Position numbers and translations under genes: made by a program. From positions 96,001 through 160,000 of the forward strand of contig JAVZCZ010000001.1 of the NCBI GenBank assembly GCA_038874135.1: a DNA stretch of 64,000 nt, in the 5' to 3' direction. The notes below the pieces were generated by a model. It was not told the DNA's origin. It searched no databases and worked only from the letters and a program-made list of their open reading frames with translations. This DNA is from Candidatus Woesearchaeota archaeon (GTDB lineage Archaea > Nanobdellota > Nanobdellia > Woesearchaeales > 0-14-0-80-44-23). This document shows, piece after piece, positions 10,845 through 32,922 of this stretch (position 1 is its first letter; each line of letters opens with the position of its first letter).

Positions 10845-11243
10845 TTATTCGTGCACTTCCTTTTTCATCTCAGCTAGCCACTTGTCTGCAATTATTGACA
10901 GCTGTTTTGAAAAGTCGTCAGAAATTCTATAAATCTTCTTGTACAGGTCGTAGTAGATTATGCCCATGCTTTTCATCGGGGTGAGTATCCTGTCGTAAAA
11001 CTGCCTCTTGTTGTATGAGAGCCTTAATTTTTTTCCAATGTAGGGCACTCTGTCAATTTTTGTTTCTAACTTGCCCTCGTGAAGCCTTGTTGCGAAGTCT
11101 GACATCTGGGCTTTAGTCATCTGACCCCCTTTTAGCTTCATTTCTCTTATGAGTGCCTGAGCAACAATTATCTGCTGCTCGGTTGCAAATATTATCTCGT
11201 ATATGTCATCTGGAAGATTAAACTTGTCAAACAAGATTACCAT
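10845..11243 (-). CDS. conserved hypothetical protein, possible winged helix
   Basis: Likely start MVILFDKF after GGGGGTG; motif FYDRILTPMKSMGII. Confidence 0.7.
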   Translation of the reverse strand: MVILFDKFNLPDDIYEIIFATEQQIIVAQALIREMKLKGGQMTKAQMSDFATRLHEGKLETKIDRVPYIGKKLRLSYNKRQFYDRILTPMKSMGIIYYDLYKKIYRISDDFSKQLSIIADKWLAEMKKEVHE

Positions 11244-11368
11244 TCCACACCCCCAAAGACTGCTAAGAAACACTAATATATAAATTTTACTCAATATTAT
11301 ATTGATATACCTTTCATTGAACTTTAAGTCCTTTTTTTGATATTAAAACATTTAAATGTATACTAATT

Positions 11369-11503
11369 TTAGTTTTTTCTTCCTCTTAATTTTTTTTCAA
11401 TATTCTCAAAAGATATTCTTATCCTATACATCTCGTAAGCCATCCATAGACAACCCATTGCTATGGGTATCTGCGTAATTAAAATTGAAGTGTAGGTTTC
11501 CAT
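11369..11503 (-). CDS. small membrane protein (44 aa), absent from ORF track
   Basis: METYTSILITQIPIAMGCLWMAYEMYRIRISFENIEKKLRGRKN*; GGGGGT SD; TM plus basic tail. Confidence 0.6.
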   Translation of the reverse strand: METYTSILITQIPIAMGCLWMAYEMYRIRISFENIEKKLRGRKN

Positions 11504-11519
11504 TCTTATTCTACCCCCA

Positions 11520-11689
11520 TTATTTTTTATTCTTTGATTTTTTGGTTAATCTCCTTTCAATCTTATTGACTGCAAATTTGAGCTTATGCAATGATAACAG
11601 CATAAATGCTGCTATTATGATGTATGGAATATGAGTTATATTATTAGGACTAATGAAGTTCGCATAAGCTCTAGTTTAACCCTACCCAT
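11520..11689 (-). pseudogene. frameshifted paralog of the 44-aa small membrane protein
   Basis: MGRVKLELMRTSLVLII* continues in another frame as THIPYIIIAAFMLLSLHKLKFAVNKIERRLTKKSKNKK*; removing 2 nt from the ATATA near 11637-11641 restores one ORF. Confidence 0.45.
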
Positions 11690-11779
11690 TTAAAATTTTT
11701 TTGTTGTTGCCCCCAATTTTTTAAAGTATGCTCTTTCCTAATTGAAACATTTTTATAACACTTAAAAATCCACTCTCTT

Positions 11780-12796
11780 ATGGATTCGGACAGAAAGTTC
11801 AGTATTGAAGATTTTGATTATTATGTGCCGAAGGATCTTATCGCCCAGGAGCCAATCCAGCCTAGAGACAAGGCACGCCTCATGATTCTGCAGGGATTCT
11901 CTATTCAGCACAAGATATTTTCAGACATTCCAAACTATGTAGGTGAGGGCGATGTTTTAGTAATAAATAACACGCGGGTAATACCAGCAAGGTTCTTTGG
12001 CAGAAAGGAAAGCGGTGGAAGGGTTGAGGCACTGCTGGTTAGGAAGCGCTCTGACGGTTCCTGGGAAGCACTAGTCTCAGGTAAGAATATAAAGCCAGGT
12101 TCCAAGCTGCTCTTTGACGACTTTTCAGCTGAGATACTCTCAAAAGAGGGGAACAAGTTTATTCTCAGCTTCAGCTCTGATGCTGAAGATATTCTCCCAA
12201 AGGGTGAGGTTCCACTGCCTCACTACATTAAGAAGCGGATTGAGAATCCTGAAGATTACCAGACGGTTTATTCCAAAAGAGCTGGAGCTATTGCTTCTCC
12301 CACTGCAGGGCTGCACTTCACTCCTCAGCTGATGAAAAACATTGAGGATAAGGGCGCTCGTTTTGTTGAGATAACACTTCATGTTAGCTTAGGCACCTTT
12401 CAGCCAGTTCACGATATTTCTTCTCACAAGATGGACCCTGAATATTATGAAGTTTCTCACGAAGCTGCTGAAATTATAAACTCTGCTTTTCGTAGTGGTA
12501 GAAGAATCTTTGCTGTTGGCACAACAGTGCTTAAAACCTTAGAAACCGTTTCAAGATTAGGAGTTGTATACCCGGGAAGTGGAGAGTCTTCACTATTCAT
12601 TAAGCCAGGGTACAGATTTGAGTCGCCTGTTTCTGCACTTATAACTAATTTTCACACTCCCAGGTCAACATTGATAATGCTGCTGGCAGCGTTTTCTGGT
12701 TATGATGAAGTTATGAATGCTTACAGGGTTGCTGTTTCTGAGCGTTATCGTTTTTTCAGCTTTGGAGACGCAATGCTAGCTTATAAGAAGGGCTAG
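11780..12796 (+). CDS. queA: S-adenosylmethionine:tRNA ribosyltransferase-isomerase
   Basis: FDYYVPKDLIAQEP, NNTRVIPAR, YQTVYS, ASPTAGLHFT, TLHVSLGTF, AVGTT, TNFHTPRST, YRFFSFGDAM. Confidence 0.96.
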   Translation: MDSDRKFSIEDFDYYVPKDLIAQEPIQPRDKARLMILQGFSIQHKIFSDIPNYVGEGDVLVINNTRVIPARFFGRKESGGRVEALLVRKRSDGSWEALVSGKNIKPGSKLLFDDFSAEILSKEGNKFILSFSSDAEDILPKGEVPLPHYIKKRIENPEDYQTVYSKRAGAIASPTAGLHFTPQLMKNIEDKGARFVEITLHVSLGTFQPVHDISSHKMDPEYYEVSHEAAEIINSAFRSGRRIFAVGTTVLKTLETVSRLGVVYPGSGESSLFIKPGYRFESPVSALITNFHTPRSTLIMLLAAFSGYDEVMNAYRVAVSERYRFFSFGDAMLAYKKG

Positions 12797-13341
12797 CATT
12801 TTCTTATTGAGAACTCGCATCCGCAGTAGTTCTGTCTGTAAATTCCTGAACTCTTGCATTCTCTTACTGAGTATTCAAACCCGCCTCCCTTCTTGAAATC
12901 GCCTGATACGAAGGTGAGTCCAAACTGGGAAGCCACTTCTTCTCCGATCCTGTTTATTATTTCTGCTTTCTTGTTTGAGCCCGATGTTAAGGTTGTTGAT
13001 ATTGCTTTAAATCCATGATTTTTAGCATACTCTGCAGTTCTTCTTAGTCTTTCTTCAAAGCAGAGTAGGCACCTTGCCCCGCCTTCCGGCTGGCTTTGAA
13101 ATTTTGGCGCTTTTGATACGAAAGAGAGCCACTCTTGGTGAGTATATTCCCCCTCTACTAAATTTATTCTTTCTTTTTCGCACGCTAGTTTTGCATTTTC
13201 CTTCCTCTTATCATACTCTTCTTTAGGGTATATGTTTGGGTTGAAGTAGAATGCTGTTATCTCGTAGTTATTTTTGAGATGGTGAAATGCTGCTAACAGG
13301 CATGGAGCGCAGCAGGTATGCAGGAGAAGTTTTTCTCTCAT
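12793..13341 (-). CDS. queH: epoxyqueuosine reductase QueH
   Basis: LLLHTCCAPC, FNPNIYP.EEY..R, EGGARC..CFEERL, YRQNYCGCEFS; start placed downstream of the tRNA. Confidence 0.93.
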   Translation of the reverse strand: MREKLLLHTCCAPCLLAAFHHLKNNYEITAFYFNPNIYPKEEYDKRKENAKLACEKERINLVEGEYTHQEWLSFVSKAPKFQSQPEGGARCLLCFEERLRRTAEYAKNHGFKAISTTLTSGSNKKAEIINRIGEEVASQFGLTFVSGDFKKGGGFEYSVRECKSSGIYRQNYCGCEFSIRKC

Positions 13342-13365
13342 TTTGTTTCTTTTAAAAATTGGACG

Positions 13366-13439
13366 GGCGGTAGCCGGAATTTGAATCCGGTCTAGAGGAT
13401 CCACAGTCCTCTGTGCTGCCAGGTTACACCACTACCGCC
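13366..13439 (-). tRNA. tRNA-His (GUG) with genomically encoded G-1
   Basis: GCGGTAG/CTACCGC acceptor stem, GAGGA-CTGTGGA-TCCTC anticodon arm, TTCAAAT T-loop, G-1 and C73. Confidence 0.95.
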
Positions 13440-13624
13440 ATATTTTTAGCTAAGATTTTGAGGTTTGTTATTTAAACATTTCGGGGAATCTTATCAAAGT
13501 GCGTTATTAAAATGGGCTGAGCAATTCATTTTTGTGATTTTTTTGTTATTGTGCAATGGTAAAAAATAGAAAGTTTTAAATATTATCTCTCTTTCTGATT
13601 TCTTCAAGTGGGGTGTTACTCAAT

Positions 13625-16363
13625 ATGAATGATTCGCTTGATAATAAGGAGCTGGCTGAACATCTCAACACAAGGTTTTCAGCTCTGGATGCAAATCTCC
13701 GAGAATCCTTTTCTTCAGTAAAGCGCGACATAATCTCTCTCAGGCAGGAATACTCGCAGAATCTTAAACAGGTTATTTCTCAGTTGAATGCAGTTCAAAA
13801 TTCTTATTCAAAAAACGATGAAGAAAGAAAGAATGAGATACTGAAAATCCAGAAACAGATTGATGCACTCTCAGCAAATGAAAGGGCAATATCTGCACTT
13901 GAAAAGAGGCTCTCAGAGCTGGAATCCAAGTTCAGACAGGCTCCGTCCTCTTCTGAAATTTCAAGTATAAAAGAACAACTCAGCGCAGTTGCTAGCAGGA
14001 GTGCTTCTAAGGAGCAGCTGAAAAATGAAATTAACAAACTTTCCGAATTATTAAAACGCGCTACCAGCGTAGAACAGGTTAACCAGCTCAAGCAGCGTAT
14101 TGAAGACTTGGGAAGTCAGCTTGAGAGAATTGAGGCTCAGGAAGCGGCCAAGGCTGCAGAGCTTTCACGCATAAGTAAAAAGATTGCTATTTCTGAGAAG
14201 GAACTTTCGGAGCACAAAAAATTCTTCCTTCCCAAATCCTCTTTTTATGAGGAAGTTGAATACATAGATAAAGAGCTGGATTCAATCTCTTCAAGAGTAG
14301 ACCAGCTGGAGCAGCTTAAAAAGGAATTTTCTTCTTTAGGAGCAGTTCAACGTGCGCTTTCAGCAAGGGTTGCTAGACTTTCCGAAGAGAAGGTTTCAAT
14401 TTCTCAGTTTGAAAAGAGCTCTGCAGGACTTGCATCTCAGATCAGAGCAGTTCAGGAAAGCCAGAAGGAATATTTTAAACAGATTGATTCTAATCTTAAA
14501 GAATCGGAAAAGCGCCTAAATAATAGGATTATGCAAAATGAAGAGGAGTTCTCAGCTGTTGAGGATTCAATAAAGAGAAAAGTTGATTCAATACGAAACT
14601 ATTCTGTAACCAAGAGGGATTTTGAAAGAAAGATTGAGTCAATCTCAAAAACATTTTCAGGAAGGCTTACTGAGCTAAGTAGAAAAGCATCCTCAATTGA
14701 CAGAAGAGTTGCCTCGTTTGAAGAGAAAGTGTATGAACACGAAGAGTTTGCAAATAGGATTTCTCAGTTGGCTTCCCGCTTGGAAGAGATTGAGAAGGCA
14801 CACATTGCTGATACTCAGAGCATCAGCAAGAAGCTGGAGAGCATACAGAACTCAGCAGCTTCAAGGAATGAGCTCTCTTCAAAGCTGGCTGCAATTAACA
14901 ATCGGCTTAGTGAGATTTCCCACTCAGCTGAAGAAGGAGATGAAGCTGTACTTCTGCAATTGAGAAGCTTAAAGGATTCTGCTGTTACTAAGAATATGCT
15001 CTCAGCCAGAACTGCTGAACTGAGGAGTGAGCTTATTAACATAAAAAATAAGCTTGCTGGAATATCCAAAGATGTTGAGAGGTTAGAAGCTATAAAAACA
15101 GACGAGGCAATATTCCGCGATGAATATGCTTACATAGAGAAGAAGATTCTTAACATTGAGAAGCAGCTTTCAGATTTAGATGCTCTTAAGAAGAGTGGGG
15201 CAACTCTCAACAAGGCGCAGGAAGAACTTAAACAAAAGTTAGCATATGCTCAGAGACAATTTGCTACCAAGAAGGACTTTAATGAAGTGTCTTCCTCAGT
15301 AAGGAAGGATCAGCAGATCATTCACAAGGAGCTGGATGAAGTACTCTCTTCACTCAGCAGCACTCACGACGCTTTAGAATCTTTAAGGTCTGAAACAGTG
15401 AACAAGCGCACCTTTGAGATGGAATTAGCTAAGCTTGAACAGCGCCTGAGAAGGAGCTCATCAAACATTAGACAAGTTATGAACGACCTTGCAGAGTTTA
15501 AGATTGCAATTCAGGATGAATATCCAAACAAGGAAATTCTCTCTAAAGAAGTTGCTGCTCTAAAGAGGGCAATCTCTAATGTGGACAGGAAGGCTTCTCA
15601 GACATCCTTGATACCTGAAATACTGGAGAGGATAGAACATCTAGAAAGAATGCTGGAAGAAGAGAAGCGCCGCTCTTCAGAAAAGGTCGGAAGACAGGAG
15701 TTTAATTCCACATTTAACTCTCTAAGAGCCAAATACTACAGCTTGAAAAGGGAGCTAGAGTCTGCTATTTATGAGGCTTCCAAAAAGGAAACCCGCAGCG
15801 AGGTTATTGAAGCTACTGAAAAGCACGCTCCTTCCATGCAGGTGCCTTTCGCTTCAAAAGAAGAGAAACCTAAGAGTGAGGATAAAAAACATCGGAAGAA
15901 TATCTTCACAATAATTGGTAGGATAATTACTGACTTTTTTACCGTTGAGGAGACTGTTCAGGAGAAGCGTCCAGAAAGTGAAGGGCACGGTGTGGCTAAT
16001 AAACTCCTATCGCGGAAGCATAACCCTTCAAAGATTATATACATCCTGATTGCACTTTTAATATTCTTCGCACTGGCAGTTATTCTAATATTTAACTTTG
16101 AGGCAGTTGAGAGGTTTTTCTCTTCCCTGGGAAGTTCAGCTTTTCTGCAAAATGCTTGGAATGCTATTTCAGAAGCGGCTTCTTCCGCGTGGGATTTCAT
16201 TTCGGCATATCTAACCTACATAGTAATCGGGCTTCTGATTGTGCTTGCAGCATTAGCTTTCTCTTCAGAAAAGGTGATATCCTTGCTAAAGAGGTTTTGG
16301 AGTTGGCTTAAGGGACTGTTCAGTAGAAAGAAGAAGGGATCCAACAGGAGAGCTAAGAAGTAG
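13625..16363 (+). CDS. very long coiled-coil protein with C-terminal membrane anchor (2 TMs)
   Basis: About 720 aa of heptad-rich sequence, no Walker A, two hydrophobic helices and a basic tail. Confidence 0.85.
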   Translation: MNDSLDNKELAEHLNTRFSALDANLRESFSSVKRDIISLRQEYSQNLKQVISQLNAVQNSYSKNDEERKNEILKIQKQIDALSANERAISALEKRLSELESKFRQAPSSSEISSIKEQLSAVASRSASKEQLKNEINKLSELLKRATSVEQVNQLKQRIEDLGSQLERIEAQEAAKAAELSRISKKIAISEKELSEHKKFFLPKSSFYEEVEYIDKELDSISSRVDQLEQLKKEFSSLGAVQRALSARVARLSEEKVSISQFEKSSAGLASQIRAVQESQKEYFKQIDSNLKESEKRLNNRIMQNEEEFSAVEDSIKRKVDSIRNYSVTKRDFERKIESISKTFSGRLTELSRKASSIDRRVASFEEKVYEHEEFANRISQLASRLEEIEKAHIADTQSISKKLESIQNSAASRNELSSKLAAINNRLSEISHSAEEGDEAVLLQLRSLKDSAVTKNMLSARTAELRSELINIKNKLAGISKDVERLEAIKTDEAIFRDEYAYIEKKILNIEKQLSDLDALKKSGATLNKAQEELKQKLAYAQRQFATKKDFNEVSSSVRKDQQIIHKELDEVLSSLSSTHDALESLRSETVNKRTFEMELAKLEQRLRRSSSNIRQVMNDLAEFKIAIQDEYPNKEILSKEVAALKRAISNVDRKASQTSLIPEILERIEHLERMLEEEKRRSSEKVGRQEFNSTFNSLRAKYYSLKRELESAIYEASKKETRSEVIEATEKHAPSMQVPFASKEEKPKSEDKKHRKNIFTIIGRIITDFFTVEETVQEKRPESEGHGVANKLLSRKHNPSKIIYILIALLIFFALAVILIFNFEAVERFFSSLGSSAFLQNAWNAISEAASSAWDFISAYLTYIVIGLLIVLAALAFSSEKVISLLKRFWSWLKGLFSRKKKGSNRRAKK

Positions 16364-28011: not shown

Positions 28012-29479
<1,468 letters not shown>

Positions 29480-29524
29480 TTTTATTTTAATCTCTCATAT
29501 CCGCCTTTATATTCATAGGAGGAT

Positions 29525-29651
29525 GGGCCCGTAGCTCAGTCTGGTAGAGCACCACCCTTGCACGCTTTGTATGAGCAAAGAACGGCGGGGGCCTCGGGTT
29601 CAAAAAAGTCCATCATTAATCTGGTGGGCTGTGGAATTCCCGACGGGTCCA
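29525..29651 (+). tRNA. tRNA-Ala (UGC) with two introns: 29563-29582 (37/38) and 29605-29637 (59/60)
   Basis: GGGCCCG/CGGGTCC acceptor, anticodon TGC at 29559-29561; removing both inserts gives a standard cloverleaf with a UUCAAAU T-loop. Confidence 0.9.
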
Positions 29652-29761
29652 TTCCTTTCAAAATATTCACGCTCACAAGTTGAGTGCAGCTGAGCATTAC
29701 AGGGTAATGCTGAGCGAAGGGTTGATGTTAATGAGACCATGCATAGGAAGCAGAATAGGAT

Positions 29762-32663
29762 GAAGCTGTCAGATGGATGACTCGGCTTAAAACGCCGATG
29801 AAGGATGCGACAAGCAGCATTATGCTCCGGCGAGCCGCATGTGGGCTTTGAACCGGAGGTTTCCGAATGGGAATCCTGCCCCGCGAGGGGCGATCCGAAA
29901 GGATCGGGAACGCAGGGAACTAAAACATTTCAGTACCTGCAGGAAGAGAAATCAATTGAGATGCGGTTAGTAACAGCGAGTGAAAGCCGCTCAGGGCAAA
30001 CTGAATTTCGCTCCGCAAGGTGCGAAAGATGTGGTGTTGTAGGACCGCATGCACGGTTCTTTATCCGGGAATCCAAACTCTCTTGAAACAGAGGGCCTTA
30101 GAGGGTGAAAGCCCCGTAGGAGTAACTGGGTAGAGAATCTGGCGAGTTCCTGAGTACCGCACATCGGATATTGTGCGGGAATCTGGGAGGCATCAACTTC
30201 CAACCCTAAATACGTTTTAAGTCCGATAGAGGAGAAGTACCGCGAGGGAAAGTTGAAAAGAACCCATAACAGGGAGTTAAAAGAGCCTGAAATCTGGCAG
30301 CGACAGCGTGCTAGGGCACTACGGTGTTCTAGCGTTCGTTTTGAATAACGAGCCAGGGAGTATGCTTGAGTGGCGAGGTTAACTGATGAAGGTAGCCGAA
30401 GCGAAAGCGAGTTTCCGCAGCCCGCAAGGGTGAGGGAACGGGTGTGAAAGCGCCTTGAGTCACTTGAGCACGACCCGAAACCGGGTGATCTATGCCAGGG
30501 TAGGGTGAAGCGGGGATAAAACCCCGTGGAGGCCCGAAGAGGTTCTACGTACAAGTGTTCTCGTAACCTTGGTATAGGGGTGAAAAGCCCATCGAACCCG
30601 GTGATAGCTGGTTCCGATCGAATCTGGCCGCAGTCAGGCCTCAGGCGAGACTGCCTAAAAGGTAGAGATACGGATTGGGGATTTAGGTTCCGAAAGGGAT
30701 CGGTCCCTTGTCCAACTCCGAATTTTTAGGCGTCGTAGACCCTGAGAGACGGGGTGTCTGGGTTAAGCTTGACATCCGAGAGGGGAACAACCCAGATTGT
30801 GGTTAAGGTCCCTAAAATTGGCTAAGTGTCAAAGGACGAAGAGTGTCTGTAGCCATAGACAGCTGGGAGGTTGGCTTAGAAGCAGCAACCCTTTAAAAAG
30901 TGCGTAACAGCTTACCAGTCAAGGTTACAGGCCTCCAAAACGGACGGGACTAAGCCAATTACCGATACCACAAGCGATGAAAATCTGCGGTAGATCGGTG
31001 TTCTGCAAGGGCAGAAGCGCTTCCGAGAGGAAACGTGGACCTTGTGGAAATAATAATCCTGGCAAGAGTAGGATCCAAGCAGAGTGAGAATCTCTGCCGC
31101 CGAAAGGGCTAGGTTTCCTTGACAATGCAGTTCAGTCAAGGGTTAGTCGGTCCTAACCGCGCCCCTAGCTGGGAGTCGCGGGACAGGGAAACGGGTTAAT
31201 ATTCCCGTACTGCTCAAGTATGTGCGGCAACGCAGGTTGGATTCCTGACGTTTCGGGCTAGGTTGACATGAACCGTCGTTCATGTTAATCAGAATAGGTC
31301 GGGGGAGTATCATAATGATGAGAACCCGAGCAAGCTGAGACGAGCTGGCGCACGCCAGTTCAGCCGATGCCTGGAACCCGTGAAAAAGGAATCCAAAAAA
31401 ATCTTGAGCAACCGTACCAAGAACCGGCACAGGTGCCCCTGGGTGAGAAGCCCAAGGCGTGATAGGGATAATCCGGGTAAGGGAACTCGGCAAATTGGCC
31501 CCGTACCTTCGGTATAAGGGGTCCCTGCCTTCGTGCTCGTAAGAGTGCGAAAACAGGGCGCAGTGACTAGGGGGGTCTGACTGTTTAACAAAAACACAAC
31601 ATTCCGCTATCCCGAAAGGGGTTGAATGGAATGTGACATCTGCCCAGTACCTGTACTTCAAACTCCGGTCCAACGGAGCTAAGAGCAGGCAAACGGCGGG
31701 GGTAACTATAACTCTCTTAAGGTAGCGAAATACCTTGTCGTTTGAATGACGACGCGCATGAGTGATGTAACAAGATCCTCACTGTCCCTACCTGGAACCT
31801 ACTGAACATCCTGTTCTGGTGTGGAGGCCAGAGTTTCCCAGTGGGAAGTGAAGACCCCGTGAAACTTTACTGTAGCTAGTTGCTGCAATTCGGACTTCTT
31901 TGTAAAGAGTAGATGGGAGTTGCTTGAAGACCTAATCGAGAGATTGGGTTTAGACGAAAGTGTAACACCATCCTAAGAAATCAGAATTGCTAACCCGAAT
32001 AGGGGACAACGATTGGCGGACAGTTTGGCTGGGGTGGCACTCGGCTGAAAGGATATCAGCCGAGCCCAAAGGTCGGCTCAACCGGGTCAGAAATCCGGTG
32101 TGGAGTGCAAAGGCAAAAGCCGGCCTGACTGGATTCCCGACAAGGAAGAATCCAGGAGAGAAATCTGGGCTTAGCGAACCTCAATGTCCTCCTTGGTGGG
32201 GGCTTGAGATGACCGAAAAGTTACTCCGGGGATAACAGAGTTGTCCCGCCCGAGAGTTCACATCGACGGCGGGGCTTGCTACATCGATGTCGGCTCTTCC
32301 TATCCTGGCTGTGCAGAAGCAGCCAAGGGTGGGGGTGTTCACCCATTAAAAGGGATCGTGAGCTGGGTTCACAACGTTGCGAGACAGTTGGTTTAATATC
32401 TACTGGGAATGCACTAGTGTCTGAGGGGAAGGACCATTTAGTACGAGAGGAACAATGGTTCGGCGCCTCTGGTCGACCGGTTATCCGACAGGGTAGGCCG
32501 GGCAGCTACGCGCTAAGGGATAAGAGCTGAAAGCATCTAAGCTTGAAACCCGCCTCAAAAAGAGACACGGATGGGATACTCCTAGAAGAGGAGTTTGATG
32601 GAACTGGGGTGTAAGTGCGAAGGTATACGACGCATTCAGCCCGCAGTCACCAATAATCCCGCC
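29762..32663 (+). rRNA. rrl: 23S rRNA (ends approximate)
   Basis: GGATGACTCGGCT 5' region, GTAACTATAAC (H69), GGGGATAACAG and CATCGATGTCGGCTC (PTC), AGTACGAGAGGAAC (sarcin-ricin loop). Confidence 0.97.
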
Positions 32664-32922
32664 TCTTATTTTGCTTCCTATGCATGGTTATCATTTTTTA
32701 TTCTAAACTTATTGTTCAAAAAACACAATAATTAGAAAAAATAAAAATTAAAATTGGAAAAAAATATAAGTTCATAAAATAATTCTATTCTAAGGATTGT
32801 TAGAATTATGCCGGTAAAATTTTGGTTTAGGAGTTTTTTTAGCAAAAATTGATTTTTTGGAAAAAAATATGATTATGATAAGAAAGTTAAATAACTTAAA
32901 AGATGGAAATAAAAATTTTACT

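Follow-up and report, generated by a model that had tools for sequence, protein, structure and literature searches.

Queuosine (Q) has long been taught to be absent from Archaea, a picture that genomics had already changed in 2021. Co-localized genes for QueA, a QueH-like protein, and Tgt were reported in 12 DPANN genomes and in some Methanosarcinales (Castelle et al. 2021, Front Microbiol 12:660052, PMC8204110). That report assigned the trio to the final three steps of queuosine formation and described it as a queuosine pathway of bacterial type in archaea. Here we describe a queA-queH pair, with an adjoining tRNA-His(GUG) gene, in a Candidatus Woesearchaeota archaeon (GenBank assembly GCA_038874135.1). 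The locus lies in a window of 64,000 nucleotides (contig JAVZCZ010000001.1, positions 96,001 to 160,000 of the forward strand), from whose first letter positions are counted below. The original prediction for this DNA had cautioned that the presence of such genes alone may not be new, which the published trio in DPANN archaea confirms. We consider it probable that the locus is the late part of a bacterial-type preQ1-salvage pathway for queuosine at tRNA position 34 (Q34), resident in the chromosome of this woesearchaeote, a member of the DPANN archaea.

In the pathway that we propose, preQ1 made by other organisms would be taken up through an unrecognized transporter, and the single bacterial-type tRNA-guanine transglycosylase (TGT), Tgt, would exchange G34 for preQ1 in tRNA-His, tRNA-Asp, tRNA-Asn, and, after splicing, tRNA-Tyr. 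QueA would then add epoxycyclopentanediol from S-adenosylmethionine (SAM) to give epoxyqueuosine, which the iron-sulfur (Fe-S) enzyme QueH would reduce to queuosine. We infer that Q is actually produced, that the precursor taken up is preQ1, and that a transporter of a kind not yet recognized carries it. The protein-coding part of the locus is as follows.

11780-12796, plus strand: queA, 338 amino acids (aa), tRNA preQ1(34) S-adenosylmethionine ribosyltransferase-isomerase, identified by PF02547, the NCBIfam equivalogs, and structure 1vky.
12793-13341, minus strand: queH, 182 aa, epoxyqueuosine reductase, with its ATG at 13341, identified by PF02677 and structure 7lc5.
12793-12796, both strands: CTAG overlap, a palindrome of 4 nt common to both convergent stop codons.

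The queA product matched PF02547 over profile positions 2 to 321 of 322 (E = 3.6e-118) and passed both NCBIfam QueA equivalogs, NF001140 with 397.9 bits (cut-off, 324) and TIGR00113 with 357.6 bits (cut-off, 267). QueA of Thermotoga maritima (1vky) was also similar (E = 8.2e-96), and SAM-dependent ribosyl transfer and isomerization on preQ1-tRNA are predicted for the protein from its similarity to structures 1vky, 1wdi, and 1yy3. For QueH, the match to PF02677 (formerly DUF208) covered positions 1 to 174 of 175 (E = 4.7e-59; 199.9 bits against a gathering threshold of 23.5), and T. maritima QueH (7lc5) was found with E = 6.2e-37; none of the NCBIfam models matched QueH. The mechanically called open reading frame (ORF) for queH spans 12793-13404 and starts from a GTG inside the tRNA gene. 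Judged by the alignment, the true start is instead the ATG at 13341, because the alignment with 7lc5 begins at residue 5 of QueH and residue 4 of the T. maritima protein; the conserved motif LLLHTCCAPC stands directly after this ATG. All cysteines of interest were kept in the same alignment, namely, the CC pair (residues 10-11), the CxxC motif, and the C-terminal CxC motif, and residue 14 is a cysteine where T. maritima has Asp13. These conserved cysteines are predicted to serve an Fe-S cluster and as extra metal ligands, as in T. maritima QueH. Both gene identifications are far beyond chance, and the intact queA and queH converging with a 4-nt overlap, as originally described, were recovered in the ORF list, the sequence, and the family matches alike.

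The original prediction had also called for a bacterial-type TGT outside the window, and a search of the closed genome found exactly one TGT-family gene (G000:C1:476630-477790), which encodes 386 aa and lies approximately 369 kb from queA, adjoining the PCNA gene. Its product passed the G34 equivalog TIGR00430 (421.3 bits; cut-off, 306.75) and failed the archaeosine model TIGR00432 (141.2 bits; cut-off, 350). The best solved relative was T. maritima Tgt (E = 3.9e-107), compared with E = 5e-18 for an archaeosine TGT (1iq8), of which only residues 15-333 of 582, the catalytic barrel, were covered; the C-terminal domains are lacking. In alignment with Zymomonas mobilis Tgt (1ozm and 6ygm), the TD-GG-Q, D-x-C, FD, CxCxxC zinc site, and HN motifs were kept, which we take to be D102, D156, C158, D280, the CxCxxC zinc site, and H349 of the Z. 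mobilis enzyme. The archaeal protein reads GGLFIGE where Z. mobilis has GGLAVGE, so that F-I replaces A232-V233. The potential substrates are present as well: the tRNAs with GUN anticodons, His, Asp, Asn, and Tyr, have one gene each, and each of them reads U33-G34-U35 (C-U-G-U-N in the anticodon loop), with an intron within the anticodon loop of tRNA-Tyr. In the intron mode of ARAGORN, a tRNA-Arg(CCT) with a 2049-nt intron was also called at G000:C1:665588-667721, probably as an artefact. The gene just upstream of tgt (L001:319-1422 [+]; G000:C1:475481-476584) encodes an M23 murein DD-endopeptidase-like domain, N-terminal as translated, which is a domain of the bacterial cell-wall hydrolase type in an archaeon.

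We compared the locus with 61 genomes of the same order, drawn from approximately 58 families. Of these genomes, 18 encode QueA, 19 QueH, and 13 both; a bacterial-type Tgt was matched in 44, with scores above the cut-off in 42. Every QueA-positive genome carried a bacterial Tgt (18/18). In many families of the order, queA and queH form a tight convergent pair as they do here, for example, in G001, G015, G024, G025, G033, and G054. Furthermore, a four-gene island in which yhhQ-queH faces queA-tgt was observed in two different families (G026:C58:4661-8571 and G038:C15:14500-18061; L113, L115, L012, and L014). YhhQ, a known importer family, was present in 23 of the 61 genomes and in none of the four from the family of this archaeon (0/4). 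The co-occurrence and the clustering in relatives are the best genomic support for the Q genes acting together as a salvage route.

Two further features of tgt in the order were noted. Seven loci (L023-L029, in G041, G027, G011, G018, G004, G044, and G010) encode a second Tgt subtype of 396-423 aa with the motifs FDECTS, GG-SLGK/R/N, and FDCV. This subtype is never accompanied by QueA but always by a lower-scoring YhhQ, whose gene adjoins that of the Tgt in G018 and G010; this Tgt and YhhQ could form a two-gene module inserting a different base, e.g., queuine or preQ0. In addition, tgt is adjoined by a gene for a class II aminoacyl-tRNA synthetase of the Asp/Lys/Asn type in L038, L039, and L040 (G021, G045, and G013). 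Both tRNA-Asp and tRNA-Asn are Q substrates.

Archaeosine TGT, in turn, was nearly lacking from the group. The TgtA model TIGR00432 was passed by no gene in this genome and in 0 of the 61 genomes of the order, and it was passed in only 1 of 151 good-quality genomes of a phylum sample, a 0.5-Mb single-contig genome from another order; four archaeal genomes used as controls all passed it. Approximately half to two thirds of the genomes in the order and phylum samples (61 + 151) carry a bacterial-type Tgt, and the rest have no TGT-family gene. Our literature searches turned up no paper stating that archaeosine TGT is almost absent from the order or the phylum sample, a pattern that merits a proper survey.

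As for the origin of QueA, the closest proteins, with 57-70% identity, bear the GenBank label Candidatus Woesearchaeota. In a quick maximum-likelihood tree, the QueA of the window fell within a strongly supported clade of 12 sequences, comprising four GenBank-named Woesearchaeota, three from this genome and two other genomes of its family, and five unnamed sequences. A phylogeny had been suggested originally as a check for horizontal transfer. The tree divides the QueA proteins of the order into at least two groups, with this clade standing apart from the others, and the QueA of G009 lies among bacterial sequences; on the other side, an approximately unbiased (AU) test did not reject a single clade for all QueA proteins of the order (P = 0.245). 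Given an unrooted tree and a set of bacterial sequences in which best hits are overrepresented, QueA may have been acquired once or several times. A peptide-pattern scan of contigs returned mostly Bacteroidota owing to the patterns used and was uninformative on origin.

It might be argued that the queuosine segment stems from bacterial contamination or from a chimeric assembly and does not belong to an archaeal chromosome, since QueA, QueH, and Tgt are all bacterial-type proteins and since the closest named QueA outside the Woesearchaeota is from a Thermoplasmata archaeon (53% identity), followed by Clostridia and other Bacillota (approximately 50%). However, the whole genome is one closed contig of 909,956 bp, with an estimated completeness of 99.4% and contamination of 0.24%, and the locus is embedded in archaeal sequence on both sides. 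Directly upstream of queA lie genes for aIF2-gamma, ribosomal protein S6e, methionine aminopeptidase, and an XPD-type helicase, and complete archaeal 16S and 23S rRNA genes are found on the other side, at window positions 28012-32673, 15 kb from the locus. These rRNA genes and the aIF2-gamma, S6e, and XPD flanks also establish the host as an archaeon, as had been assumed. The local G+C content around queA and queH (0.41) is similar to that of the flanks, other members of the family also have these genes, the adjoining tRNA-His is common to relatives, the QueA clade described above includes Woesearchaeota, and tgt, far from the locus, adjoins the PCNA gene. A chimera or a contaminant is thus very unlikely, and we give it next to no weight.

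The original prediction had required a source of preQ1 and noted that none lies in the window; a search of the whole genome for queC, queD, queF, yhhQ, and queT found none. QueF, QueD, and Qng1 were not found in the closed genome, and neither was the de novo preQ1 pathway as represented by QueD, QueC, and QueF (QueE and FolE were not searched for). Weak matches to QueC proved to be other PP-loop proteins, namely, the TtuA/NcsA-like and ThiI tRNA thiolation enzymes and an AsnB-like protein. Among importers, YhhQ/QPTR, QueT, HlyIII, and ureide permease families were not found in the closed genome. A preQ1-I riboswitch was considered as a pointer to an importer, but the best match, with 16.7 bits against a gathering threshold of 39, was rejected (preQ1-II and preQ1-III were not searched for). 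The conserved neighbors of Q genes in relatives, which were examined as candidate importers, were YhhQ (absent here), translin, the class II aminoacyl-tRNA synthetase of the Asp/Lys/Asn type, and PRC-barrel proteins; none of them is a transporter present in this genome.

Several observations weigh against the proposal that the locus serves a salvage pathway for Q34. The closed genome has no identifiable precursor source, and two generic MFS_1 genes (G000:C1, near 896,000 and near 11,000), which nothing links to Q, are its only members of a superfamily with known preQ0/preQ1 importers. Besides, 10 of the 18 genomes with QueA have no YhhQ, leaving a gap at the import step across much of the group. 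The replacement of A232-V233 by F-I in Tgt may bear on substrate choice. Finally, none of the papers found in our literature searches demonstrates Q experimentally in tRNA from an archaeon. The lack of synthesis genes and of a known importer in a closed genome would suit a decaying relic, in which the pathway is idle without a preQ1 source and the genes persist by inertia; in addition, the whole family lacks the YhhQ that other families keep beside their Q genes. Nevertheless, queA, queH, and tgt are of full length with intact catalytic and metal-binding residues, and the genes have been retained in a streamlined 0.91-Mb genome and, without disruption, in family members at 57-70% identity. An unrecognized importer is also plausible, as several unrelated transporter families can carry preQ0/preQ1 (Quaiyum et al. 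2024, PMC11130926). We therefore regard a relic as quite improbable. The altered residue pair of Tgt could instead indicate that the enzyme does not feed QueA with preQ1 and inserts queuine or preQ0, or acts at another position, so that the product differs from bacterial Q34. This would accord with the lack of an archaeosine TGT in the genome and the order and with the many relatives that have Tgt without QueA or QueH. Against it, QueA is invariably accompanied by Tgt, and QueA needs the aminomethyl group of preQ1-tRNA, as established by enzymology. Moreover, the 386-aa Tgt lacks the C-terminal domains that an archaeosine TGT uses to reach G15, and C158 together with a bulky residue at 233 presumably fits a small preQ1-type pocket, going by the comparison of bacterial and eukaryotic enzymes. 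We consider this alternative highly doubtful, and preQ1 salvage for Q34 remains the reading that we prefer.

In addition to the protein-coding genes, the original prediction drew attention to a substrate tRNA gene beside queH, and we examined this arrangement and the putative transcription signals around it.

13366-13439, minus strand: tRNA-His(GUG), a cloverleaf with a genome-encoded G-1 at 13439, discriminator C, and the anticodon loop C-U-G-U-G-G-A.
13342-13365, minus strand: spacer of 24 nt between tRNA-His and queH, with a T5 run at 13358-13354.
11750-11758, plus strand: TATA-like box TTTTTATAA, centered 26 nt before the queA ATG, read from the sequence.
13469-13476, minus strand: TATA box TTTAAATA, approximately 33 nt upstream of the 5' end of tRNA-His, read from the sequence.

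The tRNA-His(GTG) gene was called by ARAGORN at 13438-13365 (-) and by Rfam RF00005 at 13438-13366 (55.5 bits). Between the discriminator (13366) and the queH ATG (13341) lie 24 nt, so that the predicted position of the tRNA gene, upstream of queH and on its strand, was confirmed. By a rough, post hoc estimate, the chance that one of three Q genes adjoins one of four GUN tRNA genes is approximately 2-3% in a genome of about 1000 genes. From the usual archaeal spacing between TATA box and start, TTTTTATAA suggests that queA has its own promoter and a leaderless mRNA. It is likely that TTTAAATA is the promoter of the tRNA-His transcript, and of queH with it; the same box occurs at the same spacing in L124, a metagenomic contig of the same QueA clade. 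Inspection of the 24-nt spacer before queH revealed neither a suitably spaced TATA box nor a Shine-Dalgarno sequence. We put it at roughly even odds that queH is transcribed in this genome by read-through from the tRNA-His promoter, because the spacer is too short for a promoter. In archaea, tRNA transcripts are usually terminated at tracts like this T5 run, and queH would therefore be reached by read-through transcripts only; T-rich tracts downstream of tRNA-His are also found in G001, G002, and L124. The co-transcription proposed originally as probable is possible in this genome, as there is no room for a queH promoter, but it is opposed by the terminator-type tract in the spacer. Read-through from tRNA-His into queH looks like a consequence of compaction and not like evidence of substrate-specific coupling.

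It is nonetheless conceivable that tRNA-His and queH are a selected functional unit, in which one tRNA-mRNA precursor lets the Q-finishing enzyme track its substrate tRNA. The two genes are on the same strand and 24 nt apart, and the lack of signals before queH is set against a TATA box at the usual spacing for both queA and tRNA-His. Besides, in L124, which represents a second lineage of the clade, tRNA-His lies 61 nt upstream of queH with no gene between, and tRNA-His is kept in the neighborhood in G001 (same genus) and G002 (same family). However, a GUN tRNA near queA or queH was observed only in the family of this genome and at none of the other 15 queH and 15 queA loci of the order. In G001 and G002, tRNA-His is separated from queH by an opposite-strand ORF of 181-186 aa and a TATA-rich intergenic region of its own, so that a gene intervenes in two of the four informative family members. 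Furthermore, the non-substrate tRNA-Ser(CGA) lies just upstream of queA on the same strand in G039, and the non-substrate tRNA-Pro(CGG) adjoins queA in L123; therefore, tRNA adjacency is not substrate specific. The T5 tract after tRNA-His also argues against a unit, and descent alone predicts synteny among close kin. Taken together, a selected unit appears unlikely. The linkage of tRNA-His is one evolutionary event, an inherited family microsynteny and not repeated evidence, and as evidence for function the adjacency is weak; the original claim that linkage to a substrate tRNA supports real function could not be upheld.

Direct adjacency of tRNA-His and queH may be the older state of this family, because L124 has tRNA-His directly upstream of queH. 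The intervening ORF (L068:836-1396 [-] and L072:851-1396 [-], in G001 and G002) had no Pfam match and no copy in this genome by blastn and tblastn. Between these two genera, a stretch reaching from the ORF into the first 140 nt of queH shows 82% identity, whereas the remainder of the gene has diverged too far to be aligned by blastn. A small insertion beside the tRNA gene could account for the ORF, and the direct adjacency in L124 favors an insertion there over a deletion here. On the other side of tRNA-His, a 916-aa ORF without a Pfam match (window 13613-16363, plus strand) diverges from the tRNA gene, and a large ORF (>1100 aa) occupies the equivalent position in L124. Upstream of queA, window positions 11295-11779 form an AT-rich intergenic region of 485 nt, which is unusually long for a compact genome; it contained short hydrophobic ORFs only and had no Rfam match at gathering thresholds.

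To our knowledge, preQ1 is made only by bacteria. A more far-reaching scenario would be that Woesearchaeales and their kin gave up archaeosine for bacterial Q34, with the pathway here depending on bacterial preQ1, delivered by an importer of a novel family or by direct transfer from a bacterial host, and with queH driven by read-through from tRNA-His. We regard this scenario, which includes an obligate tie to bacteria, as tentative and rather doubtful. If it were true, the module would mark an obligate metabolic tie between the archaeon and bacteria. In any case, the genome provides a clean test organism and gene set for the question of whether Q is made in any archaeon, and it bears on which transporter imports preQ1 in the many Q-salvaging microbes without YhhQ and QueT.

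Compared with the archaeosine (G+15) pathway (ArcTGT/TgtA and ArcS), the system shares the fold of the TGT superfamily and a 7-deazaguanine base, but its Tgt scores only 141 bits on a TgtA model that demands 350 and is without the C-terminal extension and PUA domains. Its likeness to bacterial preQ1/preQ0 salvage (YhhQ/QPTR, Tgt, QueA, and QueG or QueH) is much closer, as the proteins belong to the same families at the equivalog level and as all of the genes stand together in a single island in the relatives G026 and G038. It differs from bacterial salvage in that this genome and its family are without YhhQ, with QueT, HlyIII, and ureide permease not found in this genome either, and in that the host is an archaeon whose tRNAs have archaeal features, such as the tRNA-Tyr intron. 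The closest counterpart is the trio of Castelle et al., in which the three genes found here, likewise of bacterial type, occur in the same group of archaea; indeed, the closest homologues are named QueA of 'Candidatus Woesearchaeota' by NCBI. Whereas that trio is co-localized, the genes are dispersed here, with tgt 369 kb from queA and queH. The earlier report counted 12 DPANN genomes; in the present sample of 61 genomes from the order, 18 have QueA and 42-44 a bacterial-type Tgt. The present genome is also closed, which turns "not seen" into "not there", and it can be stated that there is one bacterial Tgt and that neither an archaeosine TGT nor precursor synthesis by QueD, QueC, and QueF nor an importer of the YhhQ, QueT, HlyIII, or ureide permease families was found. 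The locus adds no new kind of system and is a further example of the published kind, set in a complete archaeal chromosome.

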